A DNA stretch of 64,000 bases from Bacilli bacterium (GCA_051872765.1 JBJEED010000091.1:17878-81877), one strand, 5' to 3'; counted from the first letter of the stretch, positions 1,006 to 30,142 are shown. Notes: a model not told the origin generated them from the letters alone. Program-made: numbers and translations.

Positions 1006-2451
1006 TTAATATTCAATTGAATCAACTAAATCATTAATTAATTCTAAATAACTATTATAGTTTGGAATATAATTATATATATTATTAATAAACTCTTTTC
1101 CAGTTATTTTATTACCATTTTTTAATTCTACTATACAGTTTTCTGGAATATTATCAATTATATTATTATCTAAAATATATTTCTTTATAGTTATACTAGT
1201 TCCATTTTTCAAGTTAACTATTTTATTAGCATATTCATCACTTATTATATATTCTGATATTATTTTATCTTTTTGATTAGTTTCTTTTTTTTCATAGTTA
1301 TCCATAATAGATAATAAATAATCCATTATTAATTTAATTTGTCTAAATGAAAAATTCATCTTTTTATATGCAAAATATAAACTTGACGATAATAATAATA
1401 TCTTATTTATCTTATCCATACTAGGATTTAATAAATCTAAAATATCTTCAATATTTTTATAATTATTAACTAATATGTTATCGAATGTATCATAAAATAA
1501 TTTATAATATTTATCACTTGTGTCCTTTTTTATTATATTCTCATAATACTTTGCATAAGCAATATTAAAAAAATCTTCACTTTCATATCTAATTTCAATA
1601 TTATTATCTTCTTTATCAATAAAATATATCATTTCATTTTCATCATACTTTATAATAAAATCATTTCCTTGAAAACTACTTAATTCCATTACTAAATTTT
1701 CTTCAAATAAATTAAATATATCATCATTATTATATATTATAAGTATATAATTATATAAAATATTTAACATTCTTTTTTTATTTATTTTTCTTTCATTTTT
1801 ATATAAAAATTCAATATATCTTAAAAATGATTCAATATTTATATCACTTTCATTCATATATTTAGAATAATAGTGGTACAAATACTTTATATAAATATTT
1901 TTAAAAGAATATGGGGATATCTCCGTATATACTCCTATTAAATTAATTTGATATAAAAAAGGTAATGTTCGAGATTTAACTAATTTAGATATTTCTTCTG
2001 ATTTTGTAAAATAATCTATTATTTTATTTGCATCGATTACTTTAAATACTCTCATTTGAAATATAGTATTTTTAAGTTTTTTATTTAATTTTATTGAAAA
2101 ATTAATATTATTTTCAAAACAATATTTAACTAAACTATTTGCAATAAATTCATAATTATCTTCAAATACAGGAATATCTAATAAAATATTATGTTTTTTA
2201 TTTTTTTTATCATCTATATTTTCAATATAAAAATAATTGTCATATTCATTATAAATAACATAATTTTTATTGAAATCTAGTTTTAACAAATCAGTAAATA
2301 TTTTTTTAGAAATAATTGAAATATCTTTTTTATATGATCCAATTGCTATATTATAACTTAATATTTTATTAACAAATGATTCAAAATTATTATCTTTATA
2401 ATATTCGAACATTGTTTTTAAATAATTTTCAAAATTAGTTTTTAGTTCCAT
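1006..2451 (-). CDS. Hypothetical N/K/Y-rich 481-aa protein, no recognisable family
   Basis: Long uninterrupted ORF in a genome where stop codons are very frequent. It sits between rpmH and dnaA. Confidence 0.5.
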   Translation of the reverse strand: MELKTNFENYLKTMFEYYKDNNFESFVNKILSYNIAIGSYKKDISIISKKIFTDLLKLDFNKNYVIYNEYDNYFYIENIDDKKNKKHNILLDIPVFEDNYEFIANSLVKYCFENNINFSIKLNKKLKNTIFQMRVFKVIDANKIIDYFTKSEEISKLVKSRTLPFLYQINLIGVYTEISPYSFKNIYIKYLYHYYSKYMNESDINIESFLRYIEFLYKNERKINKKRMLNILYNYILIIYNNDDIFNLFEENLVMELSSFQGNDFIIKYDENEMIYFIDKEDNNIEIRYESEDFFNIAYAKYYENIIKKDTSDKYYKLFYDTFDNILVNNYKNIEDILDLLNPSMDKINKILLLSSSLYFAYKKMNFSFRQIKLIMDYLLSIMDNYEKKETNQKDKIISEYIISDEYANKIVNLKNGTSITIKKYILDNNIIDNIPENCIVELKNGNKITGKEFINNIYNYIPNYNSYLELINDLVDSIEY

Positions 2452-2761
2452 ATTAACACCTAATTAATTTTATCATAAATTAAATGTTATGTTAATTTAT
2501 TTTTTTACACTTTATGTTAACTTATTAACAATATTTCAACATTTTATGTTAACTTATCAACAAGTTATTAACATAACACTATAAAGATATGTTAAAATTT
2601 GTTAATAATGTTAGTAACTCTTTTTAGGTTAATAAATAAAAGAAAAAAATGTTTACAAATTGTTTGGAACTTGTTAATATAAATGTTAATAAATTATTTT
2701 GTTTTGACATTAAAAAAAGATGATTTATAATAATTGTGTAAGTGTGAAGAAAGGAGAAATT
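2452..2761. promoter_or_regulatory. oriC-upstream region with DnaA-box-like 9-mers and the dnaA promoter
   Basis: A 22-bp direct repeat TTATGTTAACTTAT[T/C]AACAA occurs twice (about 2511-2532 and 2546-2566). It contains TTATCAACA and TTATTAACA, variants of the DnaA box TTATCCACA. TTGACA (2704-2709) and TATAAT (2726-2731) lie ahead of dnaA. Confidence 0.5.
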
Positions 2762-4147
2762 ATGACTACAGAAGAGTTATGGAAAGAATTTTTATCACGG
2801 ATAAGTAAACGAGTTTCTCCAATTACATATAATTGTCTTTTTAAAGATTTAAAATTGCATTCTTATAAAAACAGTAAATTTACTATAATAGTTCCTGATA
2901 GTAATAATAATGAATTGTATATACAAAATTTAAAAGATTCTTACAACATAATAGTTGAAGATATTGCTAATGATTTAACTAACGATACTTGTGAGATAGA
3001 ATATATACTACAAAAAGATATAAAAAAATTAGATGAAGAAGAAGAAAAACAAGAAAGTAATAATGATCAAATAGAAAATATTACTAATTATAAATATAAA
3101 AGTAATTTTAATCCTAAGTACACTTTTGATACTTTTGTAGTGGGTGAATCAAATAAATTAGCATATGGAACTGCTTTATCTGTTGCACAAAATCCAGGAA
3201 AATTATATAATCCATATTTTATTTATGCTAAAAGTGGTCTTGGAAAAACACATTTAATGCATGCAATAGGTAATTACATAGTTACACATTCAGATAAGAG
3301 AGTTTTATATATAAGTTCTGAACAATTCATTAACGACTATGTTTCTATAGTAAATACTAGAAATAAAAATAATAACAATATTACTTATTTAGAGGCTTTT
3401 AGAGAAAAATATAGAAATGTTGATGTACTAATGATTGATGATATACAATTTTTAGAAAAAGCTACCAAAACACAAATTGAATTTACAAATACTTTTAATA
3501 CATTATATGATAATGAAAAACAAATTATAATTGCATCAGATACTTCTATTAATGATTATAAATATTTAGAAGATAGATTAAAAACTAGATTTGGTTGGGG
3601 GTTAACGGAATCGATAAATCCTCCGGAATTTGAATTAAAAAAGAATATAATAAGAAAAAAAGTTATGCTTAATGATTTTCCACAACTAAATGAAGATGTA
3701 GTTGAATATATTGCTAATAATTGTGGAAGTGATATTAGAAATCTTGAAAATGCAGTAATTAGATTGGTTGCTTATAGAGTAACATTAAATATTAATGAAA
3801 TTACTTTAGAGGTAGCACAAAATGCTTTAAGAGAGTATGTAGGACAAGTAATATATAGAACTAATTCTGTTTCCAAAATTATTGATGTAGTAGCTAAATA
3901 TTATGGAATAGATTCTTCTATGATTAAAGGTAAAATGAGAAATAAAAATGTTGTTACAGCTAGATCTATTGCAATATACCTTAGTTGTTTAATGACTGAT
4001 GAAAGTCAAGAAAGAATAGGATTAGAAATGGGGGGAAGAGATCACTCGACAATAATTTATTCAAGGGATAAAATTACTGAAGAATTAAAAGTTAATTTAA
4101 AATTACAAGAAGAAATAAAAATTTTAAAAGAAAAAATTTGTGAATAA
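2762..4147 (+). CDS. dnaA: Chromosomal replication initiator DnaA (start taken at ATG 2762 after RBS AAAGGAG)
   Basis: Walker A GLGKTHL, conserved AAA+ core, C-terminal DnaA-box-binding domain. Position after rpmH. Confidence 0.95.
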   Translation: MTTEELWKEFLSRISKRVSPITYNCLFKDLKLHSYKNSKFTIIVPDSNNNELYIQNLKDSYNIIVEDIANDLTNDTCEIEYILQKDIKKLDEEEEKQESNNDQIENITNYKYKSNFNPKYTFDTFVVGESNKLAYGTALSVAQNPGKLYNPYFIYAKSGLGKTHLMHAIGNYIVTHSDKRVLYISSEQFINDYVSIVNTRNKNNNNITYLEAFREKYRNVDVLMIDDIQFLEKATKTQIEFTNTFNTLYDNEKQIIIASDTSINDYKYLEDRLKTRFGWGLTESINPPEFELKKNIIRKKVMLNDFPQLNEDVVEYIANNCGSDIRNLENAVIRLVAYRVTLNINEITLEVAQNALREYVGQVIYRTNSVSKIIDVVAKYYGIDSSMIKGKMRNKNVVTARSIAIYLSCLMTDESQERIGLEMGGRDHSTIIYSRDKITEELKVNLKLQEEIKILKEKICE

Positions 4148-5584: not shown

Positions 5585-6046
5585 ATGAAATATGAAATCA
5601 ACTCAGATACTCAAGTAATCTTACCAATTAGTAAAGAGTGTACAAAGGTCATAGAACAGGGAGACGAATATATATTAAATATAGCTTGTCATGAAATATT
5701 AGAACATAGTTGTGAATATTTTGGTAGTTCATATGAAGGTAGAAAAGAAGGAACAAAGAAAATTTTAGGTATTACACATAAGGCTCCAATAATAATTGAA
5801 GAAAGTAGACAAATAATATTTTTTCCAACAACTTCACCAGATAATATTAACTGCGTATGGATTAATTTAGAAAAAATTGAAAAGTATTTTAAAACAGATA
5901 CTAGAAAATCAGCAATTATTTTTAAAGACGGAACAACATTAGAATTTAATATATCTTATGGATCTTTAACAAATCAAATAATGAGAGCAACAAGATTAAA
6001 ATATGTTTTAAATGAAAGATTAATAAAAAAAGAAGATAATAAATAA
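5585..6046 (+). CDS. comK: ComK-family competence transcription factor homolog
   Basis: 153 aa; CEYFGSSYEGRKEGT...ITHKAPIII...QIIFFPT...ISYGSL aligns block by block with B. subtilis ComK (CRFFGSSYAGRKAGT...ISHKPPIMV...QIFLFPT...ISYNSF). Confidence 0.8.
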   Translation: MKYEINSDTQVILPISKECTKVIEQGDEYILNIACHEILEHSCEYFGSSYEGRKEGTKKILGITHKAPIIIEESRQIIFFPTTSPDNINCVWINLEKIEKYFKTDTRKSAIIFKDGTTLEFNISYGSLTNQIMRATRLKYVLNERLIKKEDNK

Positions 6047-9160: not shown

Positions 9161-11650
9161 ATGATGGAAGAAGAGATGAAACAAGAAAATGAATTTAGTG
9201 GAAGTTTTCATGAAAGAGATAGTCATGCTGTAAATAATATTGTAGATGAAGTAAAAAGTTCATTTTTAGATTATTCTATGAGTGTTATAACATCTAGAGC
9301 TATTCCTGATTTAAGAGATGGATTAAAACCTGTACACAGAAGAATTTTATGGTCAATGTATGAAGAGGGAAATACACCTGATAAACCTCATAGAAAATCT
9401 GCAACAACTGTAGGTAATGTTATGGGACATTATCATCCACATGGTGATAGTTCTATTTATGAGGCTATGGTTCGTTTAGCTCAAGATTTTAATCAAAGAT
9501 ATATGTTAGTAGATGGACATGGAAACTTTGGTAATATAGAAGGAGATGGAGCAGCAGCTTATCGTTATACAGAAGCAAGACTTGCTAAGATATCATTAGA
9601 ATTATTAAGAGATATTAATAAAGATACAGTTGATATGGACGATAACTTTGATGTTACTAGAAAAGAACCTAAAGTTTTACCATCTAGATTTCCAAATATA
9701 TTAGTAAATGGTTCTTTAGGTATAGCAGTTGGTATGGCAACAAACATACCACCTCATAATTTAGGTGAAGTAATTGATGGATGCATAGCATATATCGATA
9801 ATCCTGATATTGATACTTTAGGTTTAATGCAATATATAAAAGGTCCAGATTTTCCCACAGGAGGAATTATTCTTGGAAACTCCGGTATAAAGAAAGCATA
9901 TGACACGGGAAGAGGTAGTATTACTATTAGGAGCAAGGCTAGTATTGAAGAAATACATGGTCATAATTGTATAGTAATTACCGAAGTACCTTATGGTGTT
10001 AATACTTTAGAATTAAAAAATAAAGTAGCTGAATTAGTCCATAATAAAATAATAGATGGAATAACAGATTACCATACTGACTTAAAAGATGGAATTAAGA
10101 TTACAATTACTCTAAAAAAAGACGCAAATCCTCAAGTAGTATTAAATAATTTATATAAACATACATCTTTTCAAATTAATTATGGAATAATATTCTTAAT
10201 GTTAGATGGTCTTACTCCAAAAACATTAGGTTTAAAAGACATAATTTCTAAGTATATTGATCATCAAAAAGTGGTTATTATAAGAAGAACAAAATTCGAT
10301 TTAGCAAAAGATGAGAGAAGAGTACATATTTTAAATGGATATAAAATAGCTCAAGATAATATTGATGAGGTAATTAAAATTATTAAATCTGCTAAAACAG
10401 ATGAAATAGCTAAAACTAATTTAATGAATCGATTTGGTTTAGATACTATACAAGCTGAAGCAATATTGGAATTAAAACTAAGACGTTTAACTGGATTAGA
10501 AAGAGATAAAATAGAAGCAGAATTAGCAGAATTATTAAAAGAAATAGAAGAATTAAAATCTATTTTACAATCAGAACAAAAAGTTTTAGATATTATTAAA
10601 AAAGAAATGCTTGAAATTAGAAACAAATATAGTGATGATAGAAGAACTACAATAGATATGACAGCAGTAGAATACATAGAAGATGAAGCATTAATTCCTC
10701 AGGAAGAAGTAATGATTACTTTAACAAATAAAAATTATATTAAGAGAATTGCCAAAAATACTTATAAGTCTCAAAATCGTGGAGGTGTTGGCATAAAGGG
10801 TATAACAACAACAGAAGAGGATTTTGTTGAACATTTAATTTCTGTTAATACACATGATTATATTTTATTCTTCAGTAATAAAGGTAAAGTTTATAGACTA
10901 AAAGGTTATAATGTACCAGAATATTCAAGAGCAGGTAAAGGATTACCAATTATCAATCTATTACAATTAGAAAAAGATGAAAGAATTAATGCTATGGTTA
11001 AGGTAAATAACGAAGATATAAACAAATGTTTGCTTTTGAGTACTAAAAATGGTTTGGTTAAAAGAACAAAATATGAAGACTATATTAATATAAGACAAAC
11101 AGGTAAAATAGCAATTACATTAAAAGATGATGATGAATTAATTTCTGCTAAAGTAACTGAAGGAGATAGTCAAATTCTAATGTGTTCATCAAATGGTAGA
11201 ATGGTTAGATTTAATGAAAATGAAATTAGAATTATGGGTAGGACAGCTTCTGGAGTTAGAGGCATAAACTTGAATGGTGATATTTGTGTTGGTACAGAAA
11301 TATCTAAACCAGGAAATCTATTATTAGTAGTAACTGAAAATGGATATGGTAAAAAAACTGAAATAGAAGAATATAGAGAAACAAAGCGTGGCAGTAAAGG
11401 TGTAAAGACAATAAATTTATCTGAAAAAAATGGTAAAGTAGTAGGTTTCAAGTCAACTCAAAACGATAAAGACGTAATGATTATTACAAAGAATGGTATA
11501 ATAATTAGAATGGATGTTAATTCTATTTCACAAATGGGAAGAGTAACAAAAGGAGTTAAATTAATTAATCTTAAAGATAATAATAAAGTTGCTTCTATTT
11601 CAATTGTTGATAAAGAGATAGTAGAAGAAGTTGAAGAAAATGCAGAATAG
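9161..11650 (+). CDS. gyrA: DNA gyrase subunit A
   Basis: Active-site Tyr region AAYRYTEARL, QRDR HPHGDSSIYEAMV, C-terminal beta-pinwheel repeats. Confidence 0.97.
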   Translation: MMEEEMKQENEFSGSFHERDSHAVNNIVDEVKSSFLDYSMSVITSRAIPDLRDGLKPVHRRILWSMYEEGNTPDKPHRKSATTVGNVMGHYHPHGDSSIYEAMVRLAQDFNQRYMLVDGHGNFGNIEGDGAAAYRYTEARLAKISLELLRDINKDTVDMDDNFDVTRKEPKVLPSRFPNILVNGSLGIAVGMATNIPPHNLGEVIDGCIAYIDNPDIDTLGLMQYIKGPDFPTGGIILGNSGIKKAYDTGRGSITIRSKASIEEIHGHNCIVITEVPYGVNTLELKNKVAELVHNKIIDGITDYHTDLKDGIKITITLKKDANPQVVLNNLYKHTSFQINYGIIFLMLDGLTPKTLGLKDIISKYIDHQKVVIIRRTKFDLAKDERRVHILNGYKIAQDNIDEVIKIIKSAKTDEIAKTNLMNRFGLDTIQAEAILELKLRRLTGLERDKIEAELAELLKEIEELKSILQSEQKVLDIIKKEMLEIRNKYSDDRRTTIDMTAVEYIEDEALIPQEEVMITLTNKNYIKRIAKNTYKSQNRGGVGIKGITTTEEDFVEHLISVNTHDYILFFSNKGKVYRLKGYNVPEYSRAGKGLPIINLLQLEKDERINAMVKVNNEDINKCLLLSTKNGLVKRTKYEDYINIRQTGKIAITLKDDDELISAKVTEGDSQILMCSSNGRMVRFNENEIRIMGRTASGVRGINLNGDICVGTEISKPGNLLLVVTENGYGKKTEIEEYRETKRGSKGVKTINLSEKNGKVVGFKSTQNDKDVMIITKNGIIIRMDVNSISQMGRVTKGVKLINLKDNNKVASISIVDKEIVEEVEENAE

Positions 11651-11942
11651 CATTTTCTTTTTTATATCATAATGTTTTATAAAGATATTTATTATATATA
11701 TTTTATATATATTTGCAAATATATGGTGTAAAATAAACAATTATATAAATGAATCTATATATGTATATATTGGGTAGTTATTTTAGATATATTAATTTTC
11801 TAATTAAGCTACAATAATGATATTTAAATAATACAAGATTAATAATCAAATATAAATAATTATAGTATTGTATCAATGTATTGAGTATTATTAACTTAAC
11901 TAATTTTTAATAACACATATTTTAAAATTAATTAATAAATTG

Positions 11943-12398
11943 CAAAAATTATTTCCCGGGAAATAATTTTTGATAATATTTAGATAAAGTCTAAGCTATG
12001 TTTCACATGAAACATAGCTATTTTAATAATATTAAAATTAAATATGTGTTAGTATATATATTAATTTAAAATATTATAATAATATAATTTCATATTTTAA
12101 TGTTTCACATGAAACATTATATAAATTAACTTTTTTTAATAATTATATAAATTATTTCCCGGGAAATAATTTTTGCATAATATTTAAATAAAGTCTAAGA
12201 TATGTTTCACATGAAACATATATAAATATTTACTTAAATAACTATTAAAATATTAGTTATAAATAAAAATAAGTATGATTGAAAAGTAATATGTAATATT
12301 TTATAAATAAAATACATATTTAAGTTTCATGTGAAACATAAAACTTAAATAGAAAAAAATAAAATTGTTTATCAATTAATATGTTTCATGTGAAACAT
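11943..12398. repeat. Cluster of five parS-like 16-bp sites (TGTTTCACATGAAACA) and two CCCGGG-centred perfect palindromes
   Basis: 18-mer ATGTTTCACATGAAACAT at 11998-12015, 12100-12117 and 12202-12219; inverted copies at 12322-12339 and 12381-12398. Perfect palindromes CAAAAATTATTTCCCGGGAAATAATTTTTG (11943-11972) and AAATTATTTCCCGGGAAATAATTT (12149-12172). An approximately 75-bp unit spanning palindrome to parS is duplicated. Confidence 0.6.
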
Positions 12399-12452
12399 AT
12401 ATTTTAAAAAAAATAATGATTGATTTTTTTTAAAATATAGTGTAATATATAT

Positions 12453-12525
12453 GCGTGCAACGAAAATGGTTTGAACCAGGTCAGAATCGGAAGATAGCAG
12501 CCTTAAAAAGCAAATTCGTGTGCAC
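12453..12525 (+). ncRNA. ffs: Small SRP RNA (4.5S/ffs-like)
   Basis: Conserved domain IV ACCAGGTCAGAATCGGAAGATAGCAGCC (E. coli 4.5S has ACCAGGUCAGGUCCGGAAGGAAGCAGCC). The 5' and 3' ends pair (GTGCAACGAA / TTCGTGTGCAC). Followed by a T-run. Lies next to tadA and dnaX as in Bacillus. Confidence 0.6.
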
Positions 12526-12545
12526 TTTTTTTATTAGGAGATATT

Positions 12546-16535: not shown

Positions 16536-17338
16536 AAACAATTGGAGTAGAATTTAAAAAAGGTGGAAAACAATATACATTTTATGATAATGATTTAGAA
16601 TTATCCATAAGTGATAATGTTATAGTAGAAACTGAAAGAGGATTACAGTTTGGTACAGTAGCATCTATATATGTCAAGGATGATAATAAAGAACACAGTA
16701 AAGTGGTTAAAAAAGCTGATAGTGATGATGAAAAGCAGCATTTAAATAACATTAAGAGTGCTTTAAAAGCAATAGATAAAGCACAATCTTTAGCAAACAA
16801 ATTAGAACTTGATATGAAATTTTTAGATGCATATTATACTTTTGATAAGAAACAATTGGTATTTCAATTTTTAGCTGATAATAGAATTGATTTTAGAGAA
16901 TTAGCAAAATCATTAGCTTCAATATATAAAACAAGAATAGAGTTAAGACAAGTAGGTGTAAGAGATAAAGCAAAGGAAATATCTGGAATAGGCCCATGTG
17001 GAAGAAAATTATGTTGTTCATCATTCTTGAATGATTTAGATTCAGTTGGAATAGCACAAGTAAAGAATCAAAATATAGCATTAAATCCACAAAAGATAAA
17101 TGGTTTGTGTGGTAGACTTCTTTGTTGTTTAAAATATGAGGATGATTTATATACAGAGTATAGAAAATATTTACCAGAAGTTGGAGATAAAGTTAAAGTA
17201 AATGGAGAAGATGCTACAGTTATATCTTTAGATATTCCTAGAAGAAAATATATAGCATTGATGGAAAACGATAATACGAAAGTAGAAGTGGATGTATCAA
17301 AAAAGAATGAAAAACGAGAAAAAAGAAGTAATAAATGA
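16532..17338 (+). CDS. ricT: PSP1-domain stage 0 sporulation protein YaaT/RicT
   Basis: PSP1 C-terminal domain with conserved Cys pairs (CGRKLCC...CGRLLCC); follows holB as in Bacillus. Confidence 0.85.
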   Translation: MKTIGVEFKKGGKQYTFYDNDLELSISDNVIVETERGLQFGTVASIYVKDDNKEHSKVVKKADSDDEKQHLNNIKSALKAIDKAQSLANKLELDMKFLDAYYTFDKKQLVFQFLADNRIDFRELAKSLASIYKTRIELRQVGVRDKAKEISGIGPCGRKLCCSSFLNDLDSVGIAQVKNQNIALNPQKINGLCGRLLCCLKYEDDLYTEYRKYLPEVGDKVKVNGEDATVISLDIPRRKYIALMENDNTKVEVDVSKKNEKREKRSNK

Positions 17339-18044
17339 TTTAGTATACTATGATAATTTAAAAATAATACAAAACTCTGATTATTTTAATTTTAGTTTAG
17401 ATAGTGTATTATTACCAAATTTTGCCATAATTACTCCAAATACCAGAAATATTTTAGATTTATGTACTGGAAATGCACCTATACCCTTAATTTTTTCAAA
17501 AAAAACAAAGGCTAATATAATAGGTATAGAATTACAAAAAGAAATATATGATCTTGCTATTAGGTCAGTGTCTATAAATAATTTAGAAAGCCAAATTAGA
17601 ATAATAAATATGGATGCAAATGAAGTAATAAATAAATATGAGACTGATACTTTCGATTTAATAACATGTAATCCTCCATATTTTAAATATAATAAAAATA
17701 GTATAATAAATGATAATTATATAAAAACATTAGCAAGACATGAGGTTTCATTTAAATTAGATGATTTATTTAAAATATCTAAAAAATTATTAAAAAATGG
17801 TGGTTCAGTTTGTTTAATTCATAGAACAGATCGATTAATGGATATAATTATTAGTATGAAAAAAAATAACATTGAACCAAAAAGAATTAGATTTATATAT
17901 CCAAAAGTTGGTGCTGAATCTAATTTAGTATTAATAGACGGACATAAAAATGGTAAAAGTGGATTAAAAATATTACCACCATTATATGTACATAATGACA
18001 ATAGTGAATATACAGAAGAAATACTTAAAATGTTTGGAAAATAA
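17292..18044 (+). CDS. SAM-dependent methyltransferase, YabB/TrmN6 family (tRNA m6A37); the true start may be ATG 17307
   Basis: NPPY motif (ITCNPPYF), Rossmann fold. Overlaps the yaaT 3' end by 32-47 nt. Confidence 0.7.
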   Translation: MYQKRMKNEKKEVINDLVYYDNLKIIQNSDYFNFSLDSVLLPNFAIITPNTRNILDLCTGNAPIPLIFSKKTKANIIGIELQKEIYDLAIRSVSINNLESQIRIINMDANEVINKYETDTFDLITCNPPYFKYNKNSIINDNYIKTLARHEVSFKLDDLFKISKKLLKNGGSVCLIHRTDRLMDIIISMKKNNIEPKRIRFIYPKVGAESNLVLIDGHKNGKSGLKILPPLYVHNDNSEYTEEILKMFGK

Positions 18045-18077: not shown

Positions 18078-18908
18078 ATGATACAAAGAAGTTATGAAAA
18101 AAGTAAATTTGGAAATTTATATTTAGTTCCAACTCCTATTGGTAATTTAGATGATATCACAATAAGGGCAAAAAATATCTTAAATGAATGCGATATAGTA
18201 TATGCTGAGGATAGTAGAGAAACATTAAAATTATTAAAAATGTTAAATATAAATAAGAAAGTAGAAAGTTGTCACAAATATAGTGAGATGACTCATAAAG
18301 ATAAAATAATTTCTATATTAAAAGATGGAAAAAATATAGCATATGTTACAGATAGAGGAACACCATTAATTAGTGATCCTGGAAATGTTATAGTAGACTA
18401 TGCTATTGAAAATAATATTAATGTTATTGCTTTACCTGGCCCAAATGCTTTATTACCTGCAATTAATATGTCTGGAATAAGTAATCAAAGATTCTTATTT
18501 TATGGTTTTTTGAACAAGAAAAAAACATATGCAAAAAAAGAATTAATTGATTTAAAAGAAATCAAACATACATTAATTTTTTATGAGGCTCCTCATAGAA
18601 TTAAAGATACTCTATCTTTGATGTTAGAAGTATTAGGTAATAGAAAAATAGCCTTAGTTAGAGAAATATCTAAATTATATGAAGAAGTAATAAGAGATAA
18701 TATAGAAAATGTTATTAAATTGTGTGATAATATAAAAGGAGAAATTGTTATTATTGTTCAAGGGTCAACAAATAGTGAAGATAATAATAATTATGAAGAA
18801 ATGATAAATAACTTAATTTCTTCTGGTTATACAAAAAGAGATGCTATTAGGGAAATAGCTGAAAGATATAATATTAGTAAAAATAAATTATATAATGAAT
18901 TTAAATAG
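18078..18908 (+). CDS. rsmI: 16S rRNA (cytidine1402-2'-O)-methyltransferase
   Basis: Tetrapyrrole-methylase fold, YabC position. Confidence 0.9.
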   Translation: MIQRSYEKSKFGNLYLVPTPIGNLDDITIRAKNILNECDIVYAEDSRETLKLLKMLNINKKVESCHKYSEMTHKDKIISILKDGKNIAYVTDRGTPLISDPGNVIVDYAIENNINVIALPGPNALLPAINMSGISNQRFLFYGFLNKKKTYAKKELIDLKEIKHTLIFYEAPHRIKDTLSLMLEVLGNRKIALVREISKLYEEVIRDNIENVIKLCDNIKGEIVIIVQGSTNSEDNNNYEEMINNLISSGYTKRDAIREIAERYNISKNKLYNEFK

Positions 18909-22686: not shown

Positions 22687-23184
22687 ATGAAGAATACTGG
22701 TATAGTAAGAAAGATAGATGAGCTTGGAAGAATTGTACTTCCAAAAGAATTAAGAAAAAGCTTAAATATTGCGACTGGAGATGACTTTCAAATCACATTG
22801 GATGATGAAAAAATAATTTTAGAGCGATACTCTAAATTAAAAAACTACAATGATGAGTTAATTAAAATAACTAATTGTTTCTCATCTATACTTAATTATA
22901 AAATATATATAGTTGTAAACAATAAAGCACTTGGAATTAATGATGAAGTAAACTCTGGTGTTATGAAAATTATACAAGAGAGAAAGTTTTTTGTAAATGA
23001 TCATGAAGAAAGATTAAACATTTTAATGAATACAATTGATGAAGGAAAGTCAGTTATACAACCTATTGTTATAGATAGTGATTTACTTGGAGCAATAATA
23101 ATAGTTGGAAAAGATAAAATAGAGAACATAGTTAATACTTCTAAAATTATTAATAATATAATAAAATCAAATATATTAAATTAG
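22687..23184 (+). CDS. spoVT: Stage V sporulation protein T (AbrB-family regulator with GAF-like C-terminus)
   Basis: N-terminus MKNTGIVRKIDELGRIVLPKELRKSLNI is a SpoVT/AbrB swapped-hairpin; it follows mfd. Confidence 0.85.
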   Translation: MKNTGIVRKIDELGRIVLPKELRKSLNIATGDDFQITLDDEKIILERYSKLKNYNDELIKITNCFSSILNYKIYIVVNNKALGINDEVNSGVMKIIQERKFFVNDHEERLNILMNTIDEGKSVIQPIVIDSDLLGAIIIVGKDKIENIVNTSKIINNIIKSNILN

Positions 23185-24068: not shown

Positions 24069-24626
24069 GTGAAGGAATATATAAGAACAAAAATATTTCA
24101 AACTGTTCAAACAATTGTCGTTATAGTGATTGTTTTTTTTACTTTTACAACTTCATCTATTGATACAACTAGTTTAGCTGTTGCATTTAATTTTAACTTA
24201 TCTAATTATGTAGATAAAGATAAAATTGAGAAAACTCAATTAGAGTTATATAAAGAAGGGCTTTATAATCCATTATTCTCTTTTACCGGAGATTTAACTG
24301 GTTATGTAGGAGACTGTCCATTATGTTCTGGATATCTTGCTTGTCCTCCTAATACAAATGTATTAAAAGAAGGGATATATTATAATGATGCAACATATGG
24401 AAATGTAAGAATAGTTGCTAGTAGTAAAAATTATCCTTGTGGAACTATATTAGAATTTGAAGTTGGAAAAATATCTAACGAACCAATTATAGCAATAGTG
24501 TTAGATAGAGGTGTTGGTGGTAATGATATAGACTTATTAACGGATTCACAAGATTATGCAATTAAAACAATAGGGAGAGTAAAAAATCAGGAATTTAAAG
24601 TACTTAGAGAAGGATGGAAGAGATGA
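24069..24626 (+). CDS. YabE-like membrane-anchored 3D-domain protein (GTG start)
   Basis: N-terminal TM; C-terminal 3D domain with conserved Asp residues (GNVRIVASS...LDRGVGGNDIDLLT); lies between tatD and ksgA as yabE does in Bacillus. Confidence 0.7.
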   Translation: MKEYIRTKIFQTVQTIVVIVIVFFTFTTSSIDTTSLAVAFNFNLSNYVDKDKIEKTQLELYKEGLYNPLFSFTGDLTGYVGDCPLCSGYLACPPNTNVLKEGIYYNDATYGNVRIVASSKNYPCGTILEFEVGKISNEPIIAIVLDRGVGGNDIDLLTDSQDYAIKTIGRVKNQEFKVLREGWKR

Positions 24627-25402
24627 AGAGTTTTAATTATAAAAAATCATTAGGACAAAATTTCTTAAAAGATAAAAATATTATTAAAAAAATATCTGAT
24701 AATATTAATCCTAATGAGAATGATTTAATTGTTGAAATTGGTCCAGGAGCAGGTGCATTAACGAAAGAACTTGTAAAAAAGGATTGTGATATCATATGTT
24801 TTGAAATAGATGAACGTTTAAAAGAAATATTAGAATCAATTGATTCAGATAGAATTAATATATTCTTTAAAGATTTTTTGAAAGTAAATTTAAGTGAATA
24901 TGTAGATACAAAAAAATACAATCATATTTATTTTGTAGGAAACTTACCTTATTATATAACAACGGCAATTATAAATAAGATAATTAGTGAATCTGATCCT
25001 TATGAAATAATTATAATGGTTCAAAAAGAAGTAGGAGAAAGATTTTCTTCAAGTCCAAATTCAAAAAACTATAACTCATTGTCAGTTTTCTTACAATATA
25101 ATTTTGATATAAAAAAAATAGTAAATGTTCCTAAGCAAAGTTTTACACCGGTACCTAAAGTAGATAGCATGGTTATAAAATTAAAAAAGAATAAAAAGTA
25201 TATAGTTAATGATGAAGAATATTTTTATAAATTTGTAAAGGATGCATTTACTCAAAAAAGAAAAAATTTAAGAAATAATCTCAAGAATTATGATTTAAAT
25301 AAGCTGGATATTATATTAAAATCTATTGGTAAAGATTTATCATATAGAGCAGAGGCTATATCTGTTGATGAGTTTGTTAAAATAGTAAATGAATTGAAAT
25401 AA
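24614..25402 (+). CDS. rsmA: 16S rRNA (adenine1518/1519-N6) dimethyltransferase
   Basis: GQNFL, EIGPGAG SAM motif, NLPY. Confidence 0.9.
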   Translation: MEEMKSFNYKKSLGQNFLKDKNIIKKISDNINPNENDLIVEIGPGAGALTKELVKKDCDIICFEIDERLKEILESIDSDRINIFFKDFLKVNLSEYVDTKKYNHIYFVGNLPYYITTAIINKIISESDPYEIIIMVQKEVGERFSSSPNSKNYNSLSVFLQYNFDIKKIVNVPKQSFTPVPKVDSMVIKLKKNKKYIVNDEEYFYKFVKDAFTQKRKNLRNNLKNYDLNKLDIILKSIGKDLSYRAEAISVDEFVKIVNELK

Positions 25403-29392: not shown

Positions 29393-30142
29393 ATGAATAG
29401 TAAATTTAAAGTTGGTGACTATGTCACAAGAAAAAAATATAATAATGATATCGTATTCAAAATTAAAAGCATAAATAGAGATGTGATTATTTTAAGTGGC
29501 GTAGATGTTAGATTATATGCAGATGCATATGCTAATGATTTAGTATTAACATCAATTAGTAAAAAAAAAGAAGAGATAAGCACACTTAGAAGTTTAGATG
29601 TGGATAAATATTTTTATATTCCTGGTAAAGTACTTCATATAGATGCAGATAAGAATTATTTGGAAAAATGTAAAGAATATTATGAAACACAAAAAGTAAA
29701 GTATTATGGTTATATATTTAAAGAAAAAGATTTTAAAGAAAAAGTAAATAATCTTATTCAAAAACATAAGCCTGAAATTGTTGTTATAACTGGTCATGAT
29801 GCATATTATAAAAATAATAAATATAAGAATAGTAAATATTTTATTGATGCTGTTAAACAAATTCGAGATAAATATCCAAATGTAATTATAATAGCGGGAG
29901 CTTGTCAAAGTGATTATGAGGGACTTATAAAAGCAGGTTCAACATTCGCATCAAGTCCATCACATATTAATATTCATGCTTTAGATCCAGCTATAATTGC
30001 TTCATATATAGCACTAACTAGTAAAGATAAAACTATTGATTTAATAGAAATGTTATCAAAGACAAAGTATGGTAGTGAGGGAATAGGTGGATTTGTGATT
30101 AATGGTACTATGAAGATGGGATATCCAAGAAAAAAGGAATAA
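29393..30142 (+). CDS. yabG: Sporulation-specific protease YabG
   Basis: N-terminus MNSKFKVGDYVTRKKYNNDIVFKIKSI resembles YabG; yabG-veg order. Confidence 0.8.
   Translation: MNSKFKVGDYVTRKKYNNDIVFKIKSINRDVIILSGVDVRLYADAYANDLVLTSISKKKEEISTLRSLDVDKYFYIPGKVLHIDADKNYLEKCKEYYETQKVKYYGYIFKEKDFKEKVNNLIQKHKPEIVVITGHDAYYKNNKYKNSKYFIDAVKQIRDKYPNVIIIAGACQSDYEGLIKAGSTFASSPSHINIHALDPAIIASYIALTSKDKTIDLIEMLSKTKYGSEGIGGFVINGTMKMGYPRKKE

Follow-up and report, generated by a model that had tools for sequence, protein, structure and literature searches.

The DNA analyzed here, a stretch of 64,000 nucleotides referred to as the window, comes from an uncultured member of the Bacilli and covers the origin region of its genome. 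The G+C content is ~23%, a value slightly below the ~25% quoted in a preliminary description of the sequence. Its genes run in the order rnpA, rpmH, a 481-aa ORFan, dnaA (2720-4147, + strand), dnaN, a ComK-family ORF, recF, gyrB, and gyrA (9161-11650, + strand), followed by an intergenic spacer and then by ffs, tadA, dnaX, ybaB, recR, and onward. The spacer measures ~790 bp (11651-12443, no strand assigned), is bounded on its left by gyrA and on its right by ffs, which encodes the small SRP RNA (12444-12540, + strand; RF00169, 52.1 bits), and contains the entire array of sites described below. The GC skew flips its sign between the bins 1-2000 and 2001-4000, just upstream of dnaA, which puts the array on the right side of the origin, some 8-9 kb away. 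Because the DnaA boxes (32 vs 26 expected) and the promoter-like matches (19 vs 16.4 expected) both occur at chance level, oriC was placed by gene order and GC skew only.

The ORFan (1006-2451, − strand) has a G+C content of ~18% and occupies the interval between rpmH and dnaA, which is usually the origin spacer. It belongs to no Pfam or NCBIfam family, it is present in the window species only (L001-L004, L011, and L182), and a scan of genome contigs with the 481-aa sequence as the query returned no relative. The ORF between dnaN and recF (5585-6046, + strand) is of the ComK family, with a Pfam ComK match of 2e-47 on its L011 orthologue. Sporulation-type genes are also found in the lineage, namely those for a YabG peptidase, a SpoVT-like protein, a BofA-like protein, and SpoIIR (window 29393-30142 and 22687-23184; L005:3689-3859; L182:16945-17481). 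Deposited metagenome-assembled genomes of this 23% G+C lineage are variously labelled Bacilli, Clostridium sp. CAG:1000, Mollicutes, and even Muribaculaceae, and an exact look-up of the window GyrA gave no match.

Two perfect palindromes centred on CCCGGG, both recognized in the preliminary description, lie in the gyrA-ffs spacer. The first, CAAAAATTATTTCCCGGGAAATAATTTTTG at 11943-11972, is 30 bp long and is broken by the next outer pair (G/A); the second, AAATTATTTCCCGGGAAATAATTT at 12149-12172, is 24 bp long and is broken by the next pair (T/T). CCCGGG occurs twice in the 64-kb window (0.14 expected), both times within the palindromes, and TTTCCCGGGAAA, with up to one mismatch allowed, likewise gives two matches (0.02 expected) that are the palindromes themselves. 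The core of each palindrome is an exact copy of the 16-mer TATTTCCCGGGAAATA, at 11950-11965 (NBS-1) and 12153-12168 (NBS-2), neither having an assigned strand. With up to three mismatches allowed, this 16-mer is found at only these two places in the 64-kb window, which thus holds no degenerate version of the site. The 24-bp form around NBS-2, AAAWTATTTCCCGGGAAATAWTTT, corresponds to the extended consensus across the clade.

Both NBS are embedded in an array of parS-like sites, as had been described. Five sites with up to two mismatches to the parS consensus TGTTTCACGTGAAACA lie within 400 bp (11999-12397), and none is found elsewhere in the window; at up to three mismatches, for which 0.34 matches are expected in the whole window, the sole extra match (39401, three mismatches) is at chance level. 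These five sites, again without strand, are (i) TGTTTCACATGAAACA at 11999-12014, with one mismatch to the consensus and 49 bp from NBS-1; (ii) a site at 12101-12116, with one mismatch and no partner NBS; (iii) a site at 12203-12218, with one mismatch and 50 bp from NBS-2; (iv) AGTTTCATGTGAAACA at 12323-12338, with two mismatches; and (v) TGTTTCATGTGAAACA at 12382-12397, with one mismatch. The distances of 49 and 50 bp are the same whether counted from start to start or from centre to centre of the 16-bp cores, and correspond to a gap of 25-30 bp from the end of the palindrome to the start of the 18-bp parS-like site ATGTTTCACATGAAACAT, in agreement with the ~25 bp reported earlier. Each pair forms part of a repeat unit of an NBS and a parS module: unit 1 (11917-12016, + strand; repeat family D1) could be aligned with units from L011, L008, and L012, and unit 2 (12121-12220, + strand), at an offset of 204 bp, shows 76% identity to unit 1. 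The duplication proposed in the preliminary description is thus present, and the size of the duplicated unit is about 80-100 nt instead of the ~75 bp given there.

The composition of the array varies by strain, with two NBS and five parS in the window and two NBS and four parS in each of L011 and L008. All of the parS copies in the window species carry a central CA/TG in place of CG, as in TGTTTCACATGAAACA (window 11999-12397; L011:19174-19520; L008:776-1110). Each NBS is followed directly on its right by the short sequence TTT(T)TG(C)ATAAT (window 11966-11980 and 12169-12184), which the repeat units of L011 and L008 share with those of the window and which the L012 unit retains in part; this sequence might represent an extended −10-like element or a piece of a protein footprint.

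The motif itself is already known: judged by sequence, both palindromes are consensus Noc-binding sites (NBS), to which they match at 16 of 16 positions, and this match establishes the identity of the site. The original description of the NBS is reportedly that of Wu in 2009. The consensus NBS is the 16-mer TATTTCCCGGGAAATA, composed of the half-sites TATTTCCC and GGGAAATA, and it differs from the consensus parS, TGTTTCACGTGAAACA, by two bases per half-site, which switch the reader from ParB to Noc (Jalal 2020, PMC7383237). On the protein side, four residues, which read R/T/A/G in the ParB of Caulobacter and Q/K/K/R in Noc, discriminate between the two sites; Q173 together with R201 switches the specificity, and a K or R at position 179 or 184 is permissive (Jalal 2020, PMC7383237). 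In the window, NBS with the half-site TATTTCCC and parS with the half-site TGTTTCAC occur within the same 450 bp, and the parS copies have retained their parS-specific bases.

To evaluate the conservation of the site, we compared 43 loci from a DnaA scan of species-representative genomes. Perfect 16-bp NBS recur in over 30 independent clade genomes, whose DnaA identity ranges between 98% and 45%, and six loci outside the clade contain no perfect NBS. In most of the relatives, it is again the gyrA-ffs spacer that contains NBS together with parS. A restriction of the 16-mer to the window species, which we had considered, is refuted by its conservation outside that species. Among 55 perfect NBS, 39 reside in the gyrA-tadA spacer and nine more in the parS arrays of L043, L045, and L047, where the arrays are found downstream of a tadA-like match and not in the gyrA-ffs spacer. 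Most NBS in the clade genomes are 18-91 bp from a parS, the majority of them within 60 bp, and the NBS-parS spacing, although fixed in each genome, varies from one genome to another: it is 49/50 bp in the window, 24-25 bp in both L043 and L045, and 59-60 bp in L047. L036 and L041 each have a single perfect NBS, which lies in dnaX. A perfect NBS is found inside dnaX at a conserved position, ~1.1-1.2 kb into the gene, in five loci (L035:15030, L036:20508, L038:19685, L041:20582, and L042:20575); no such site is present in the dnaX of the window. Neither NBS nor parS occurs in the 20 kb left of the origin in the sister clade.

The spacer that surrounds the NBS is not alignable between distant members of the clade. 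The outer arms of the palindrome also change: in L008, one outer arm is mutated from CAAAAATT to CAAAGATT with no compensating change, and the core is unchanged. Immediately beyond the 16-mer, AAA(W)/(W)TTT is present in 50-54 of the 55 sites on one side and in 41-47 of the 55 on the other, which yields the 24-bp extended consensus. Moreover, 729 kb of clade DNA contain 55 copies of CCCGGG (~3 expected from base composition), comprising 53 in perfect NBS, one in an NBS with one mismatch, and one elsewhere. These comparisons establish that both the site and its location next to parS are conserved and, at the level of sequence, demonstrate that the NBS and its pairing with parS are under selection.

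We further scanned metagenome contigs for the 24-bp extended consensus and examined 80 loci among the matches listed, with G+C contents of 19-46% (all but one ≤35%). Among the matches listed, these 80 loci hold 148 perfect NBS, with 65 of them located within 100 bp of a parS, 54 intergenic with no parS nearby, and 29 inside ORFs of at least 150 aa. At least 26 loci, among the matches listed, carry composite arrays of NBS and parS. In some arrays the two sites strictly alternate, as in L088 (2468-3076), where six NBS and six parS follow each other with a period of 105 bp; further strictly alternating arrays are found in L097 (6012-6642), L064 (2838-3329), and L109 (23-1301), with periods of ~123, 119, and 260 bp. 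Composite NBS-parS arrays are therefore a recurrent architecture, being present in several relatives and in metagenome loci, and isolated NBS also exist. A search of a limited body of literature for interspersed NBS and parS found nothing relevant.

The 64-kb window itself contains no ORF of the ParB family. A close relative, L011, which matches the window at 95.2% of nucleotides over 11.7 kb, has a ParB-family gene encoding 404 aa directly after rsmG (L011:673-1887, − strand), of which other copies are P0126 and L180:1431-2645. P0126, which is 96% identical to the L011 protein, is found on contigs from SRR30616829 and SRR30616832, a sample series that also carries window-identical proteins; judging from these sequences, P0126 is very probably the window strain's own gene, with its start ~5.4 kb past the left end of the window. 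The Noc-type gene would then be located about 12 kb to the left of the NBS pair in the same lineage. It lies immediately after rsmG (gidB), near oriC, in L011, in L182, and in every clade locus that reaches this position.

Among solved structures, the best homologues of the encoded protein are Noc proteins (7nfu, 2e-59; 7ol9, 6.5e-55), with Spo0J (1vz0, 1e-45) behind them. Its four specificity positions are Q, K, N, and R (SQSAIANKLRLLNLP...SERHAR) in both L011 and P0126, so that it has both switching residues and one permissive lysine, with N replacing K at the other permissive position. In all of the 22 clade loci extending into the gene, the four positions are occupied by Q, by K or R (R being confined to L022 and L023), by a variable residue, and by R, and the 120 closest database homologues comprise 111 with QKNR, six with QRNR, and three with QKKR. 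These residues establish a protein of the cognate type in the lineage. Pfam recognizes the ParB_N (2e-32) and HTH_ParB (9e-34) domains, and an AF2 model is confident at residues 5-210 and in the C-terminal domain (355-400). The N-domain motifs PNRFQPR, GERRY, and ENLQR, which we take to be the conserved CTP-binding boxes of ParB/Noc, are invariant.

The protein departs from characterized Noc proteins in two regions. First, it has no N-terminal amphipathic helix: in the PDB alignments, its residues 2-3 align to Noc residues 21-24. A stop codon lies six codons upstream of the ATG, all of the 120 closest homologues are equally short at the N-terminus, and the first element in the AlphaFold model is a β-strand at residue 9. 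A hydrophobic-moment scan for an alternative amphipathic helix was uninformative, as it did not rank even the B. subtilis Noc helix; it is on the PDB alignments that we base the assignment of the N-terminus. The N-terminal amphipathic helix (about residues 1-15) is reported to be conserved in all Noc homologues examined and to be needed for Noc function in B. subtilis (Adams 2015). Second, a linker of ~130 residues (221-349), acidic and N-rich, is predicted to be disordered (pLDDT <50) and carries two short motifs, ϕ-P-E/D-V-V and (I)INPF, in 119 of the 120 homologues; these two conserved peptide motifs presumably serve a partner. With TIGR04285, the NCBIfam model for Noc, the protein scores 274.6 bits, below the cut-off of 315 (the sister-clade canonical ParB scores 247), and NCBI names it only a "ParB/RepB/Spo0J family partition protein." Thus, to judge from its sequence, the proposition that the protein works like Noc at the DNA is well supported. 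That it acts as a nucleoid occlusion factor is not well supported, because it falls below the TIGR04285 cut-off, has N for K at one permissive position, and lacks the helix.

Taken together with the site, these features make it highly probable, on sequence grounds, that the palindromes are NBS read by the Noc-type ParB paralogue encoded after rsmG. The suggestion in the preliminary description that they are dimeric sites for a second centromere-binding factor is therefore borne out in essence, in that the sites are NBS of Noc, a ParB paralogue of the Firmicutes, and a Noc-type gene is present in the same lineage; that description had not identified the motif as an NBS.

The window's subclade has no soj-spo0J downstream of noc (L182:10001-19190; first 4 kb in L021, L028, L029, and L031-L042), where a Band_7/SPFH plus zinc-ribbon gene and/or a convergent PBP1A gene come next after noc, ahead of prfA, prmC, spoIIR, and murA. 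The arrangement rsmG-noc-soj-spo0J is kept only in the most distant members and in the large sister clade. A search with the sister-clade Spo0J for the ParB of the clade returned top matches that, wherever their context was inspected, all belonged to the sister clade, with noc-soj-spo0J intact. In the window species, we found neither a canonical ParB nor a Soj in the interval that extends from about −17 to +60 kb relative to dnaA. The sister-clade canonical ParB has S, not G, at the equivalent of Caulobacter G201 in 115 of 116 parsed sequences (P0001-P0120; L043:426-1301, − strand). G201 is absolutely conserved in ParB orthologues, and S or T at this position is frequent in dual-specificity variants (Jalal 2020, PMC7383237).

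These observations bear on the strongest of the alternatives, according to which one reader serves both sites, either a dual-specificity canonical ParB or a Noc-type protein that binds NBS and parS alike, and the array is one centromere. The lack of a canonical ParB and a Soj in that interval around dnaA, the serine in the sister-clade ParB, and the constant co-location of NBS and parS would all fit such a reader. We nevertheless consider it unlikely, as the Q and R of the Noc-type protein are the combination that made an engineered ParB NBS-specific, and the occurrence of both site types, perfect and sharply distinct, in the same array argues for two readers; moreover, S201 with R173 is also permitted in parS-specific variants (Jalal 2020).

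A regulatory role had also been suggested, with the palindromes serving as an operator through which a transcription factor would regulate ffs, tadA, or dnaX. The sites are indeed upstream of ffs-tadA-dnaX, and the short TG(C)ATAAT that follows the NBS is conserved in close relatives, but NBS-2 and NBS-1 lie ~275 and ~480 bp upstream of ffs, respectively, and promoter-like matches in the spacer do not exceed chance. The identical 16-mer is, moreover, present inside the dnaX coding sequence of five relatives, in other spacers, and elsewhere, and, among the metagenome matches listed, the NBS within long ORFs likewise speak against an operator, which makes this reading very improbable.

Still harder to sustain is the idea, raised in the same description, that the palindromes are targets of a CCCGGG-specific (SmaI/XmaI-like) restriction-modification system, which would accord with the near absence of the CCCGGG core elsewhere. 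A hexamer-specific enzyme needs no flanking sequence, yet 53 of the 55 CCCGGG copies in the clade DNA carry the full 16-bp palindrome, sharing 10 flanking bases (5 bp on each side), and conserved A/T flanks (AAA/TTT) beyond it. It is thus a site of 16-24 bp that is enriched, and not a hexamer that is avoided, and it is conserved at one syntenic spot in genomes with 45-98% DnaA identity. Among 10 mid-size window ORFs scanned with Pfam, none encodes a cytosine DNA methyltransferase; the methyltransferases among those 10 are of the MTS/N6 type (17292-18044), the TP_methylase family (18078-18908), and the KsgA-type rRNA dimethylase family (24614-25402). We regard a restriction-modification target as scarcely credible.

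The chance that the palindromes are accidental or structural (cruciform or hairpin) elements copied by local duplication is negligible, for although both window copies lie in one duplicated unit and imperfect inverted repeats abound in A-T-rich DNA (35 pairs within 900 bp), a perfect 16-mer, expected at an estimated 1e-6 to 1e-5 per locus from base composition, is seen in more than 30 independent genomes, its outer arms drift uncompensated around an invariant core, and the palindromes are not called as terminators. We therefore rejected the restriction-site, operator, and chance readings on the basis of the recurrence of NBS at the gyrA-ffs spacer of relatives and of the share of CCCGGG copies that fall within NBS.

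For the preferred reading, that of NBS recognized by the Noc-type paralogue, we propose a mechanism by analogy with characterized Noc and ParB proteins. A dimer of the Noc-type ParB paralogue would nucleate and load at the NBS, with the helix-turn-helix of each subunit reading one TATTTCCC half-site. The glutamine would contact the A at half-site position 1, and the arginine would contact the G opposite the C at position 6; these are the two bases per half-site that set NBS apart from parS. Binding to the site would stimulate CTP binding, the N-terminal domains would close to form a clamp, and the clamp would slide onto the flanking DNA, as in the CTP-gated clamp and sliding biochemistry of Noc/ParB (Jalal 2020, PMC7383237; Jalal 2021). 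Because each NBS is ~50 bp from a parS, two clamp families would be loaded on the same few hundred bp, so that ParB-type and Noc-type clamps on this short stretch by oriC might build a composite nucleoprotein complex on an origin-proximal centromere. We infer the binding itself and the CTP-dependent sliding from this analogy; the physiological output might be division control, origin control, or segregation.

As the protein has no N-terminal helix, it is unlikely to be tethered to the membrane in the way known from Bacillus, which depends on that helix. In S. aureus, the spreading of Noc reaches 8-10 kb from its sites, and Noc restrains the initiation of replication (PMC5540599); an origin-linked role for the Noc-type protein is, as speculation from this parallel, therefore conceivable. 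It is possible, though doubtful, that the Noc-type paralogue is a second centromere protein and that the array is a composite centromere of two paralogues, as opposed to a device for ordinary nucleoid occlusion. In the window's subclade, the protein may also have come to perform some of the functions of soj-spo0J.

The closest known system is the Noc-NBS system of B. subtilis and S. aureus (Wu 2009; Adams 2015; Pang 2017; Jalal 2020, 2021), which has the same 16-bp consensus site. Like Noc, the protein described here is a paralogue encoded directly after rsmG (gidB), with Q and R at the switching positions, the N-domain motifs, a helix-turn-helix, and a C-terminal dimerization domain. Unlike Noc, the window-lineage protein has no N-terminal membrane helix and starts at the equivalent of Noc residue 21-24, contains a disordered acidic linker of ~130 residues with two motifs, has N for a permissive K, and scores below the TIGR04285 cut-off. 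In addition, the NBS sampled here are concentrated in parS arrays, often alternating with the parS sites, and are not only scattered. With ParB-parS, the system shares a 16-bp palindrome, a dimeric helix-turn-helix clamp as the reader, clustering of the sites a few kb from oriC, and growth by local duplication (PMC7333895), but the half-sites are distinct (TATTTCCC in NBS vs TGTTTCAC in parS), and the window's parS are separate, neighbouring elements. The SlmA-SBS system of Escherichia coli also pairs a palindromic chromosomal site with a spreading division-control protein that it nucleates (PMC5540599), although the resemblance is one of role only, since SlmA has a TetR fold, an unrelated motif, and no link to parS. 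A SmaI/XmaI site has the same central CCCGGG, whereas the unit conserved here is 16-24 bp long and enriched. What is new is thus the system around the NBS, namely a helix-less, long-linker Noc-type protein, NBS placed in parS arrays by oriC, and the absence of soj-spo0J from its usual place.

The arrangement raises the question of what follows when distinct CTP-gated clamps of two kinds are loaded onto one DNA at sites 25-60 bp apart, a question that we did not find addressed in the literature searched. It also bears on origin-linked roles of Noc beyond membrane tethering, as have been suggested for S. aureus, and on how Noc arose from ParB, that is, whether the switch in DNA specificity or the membrane helix came first. 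The Noc-type protein would be either a natural intermediate in the evolution of Noc, in which the specificity was switched and the helix never grafted, or a re-purposed Noc. Both of these questions about Noc can be tested by simple binding, CTP-clamp, and liposome assays. The lineage, made up of uncultured gut and rumen Bacilli with very A+T-rich DNA, offers hundreds of natural Noc-type proteins for that purpose, which have the specificity switch and no helix, and whose sites are hard-wired beside parS and oriC.
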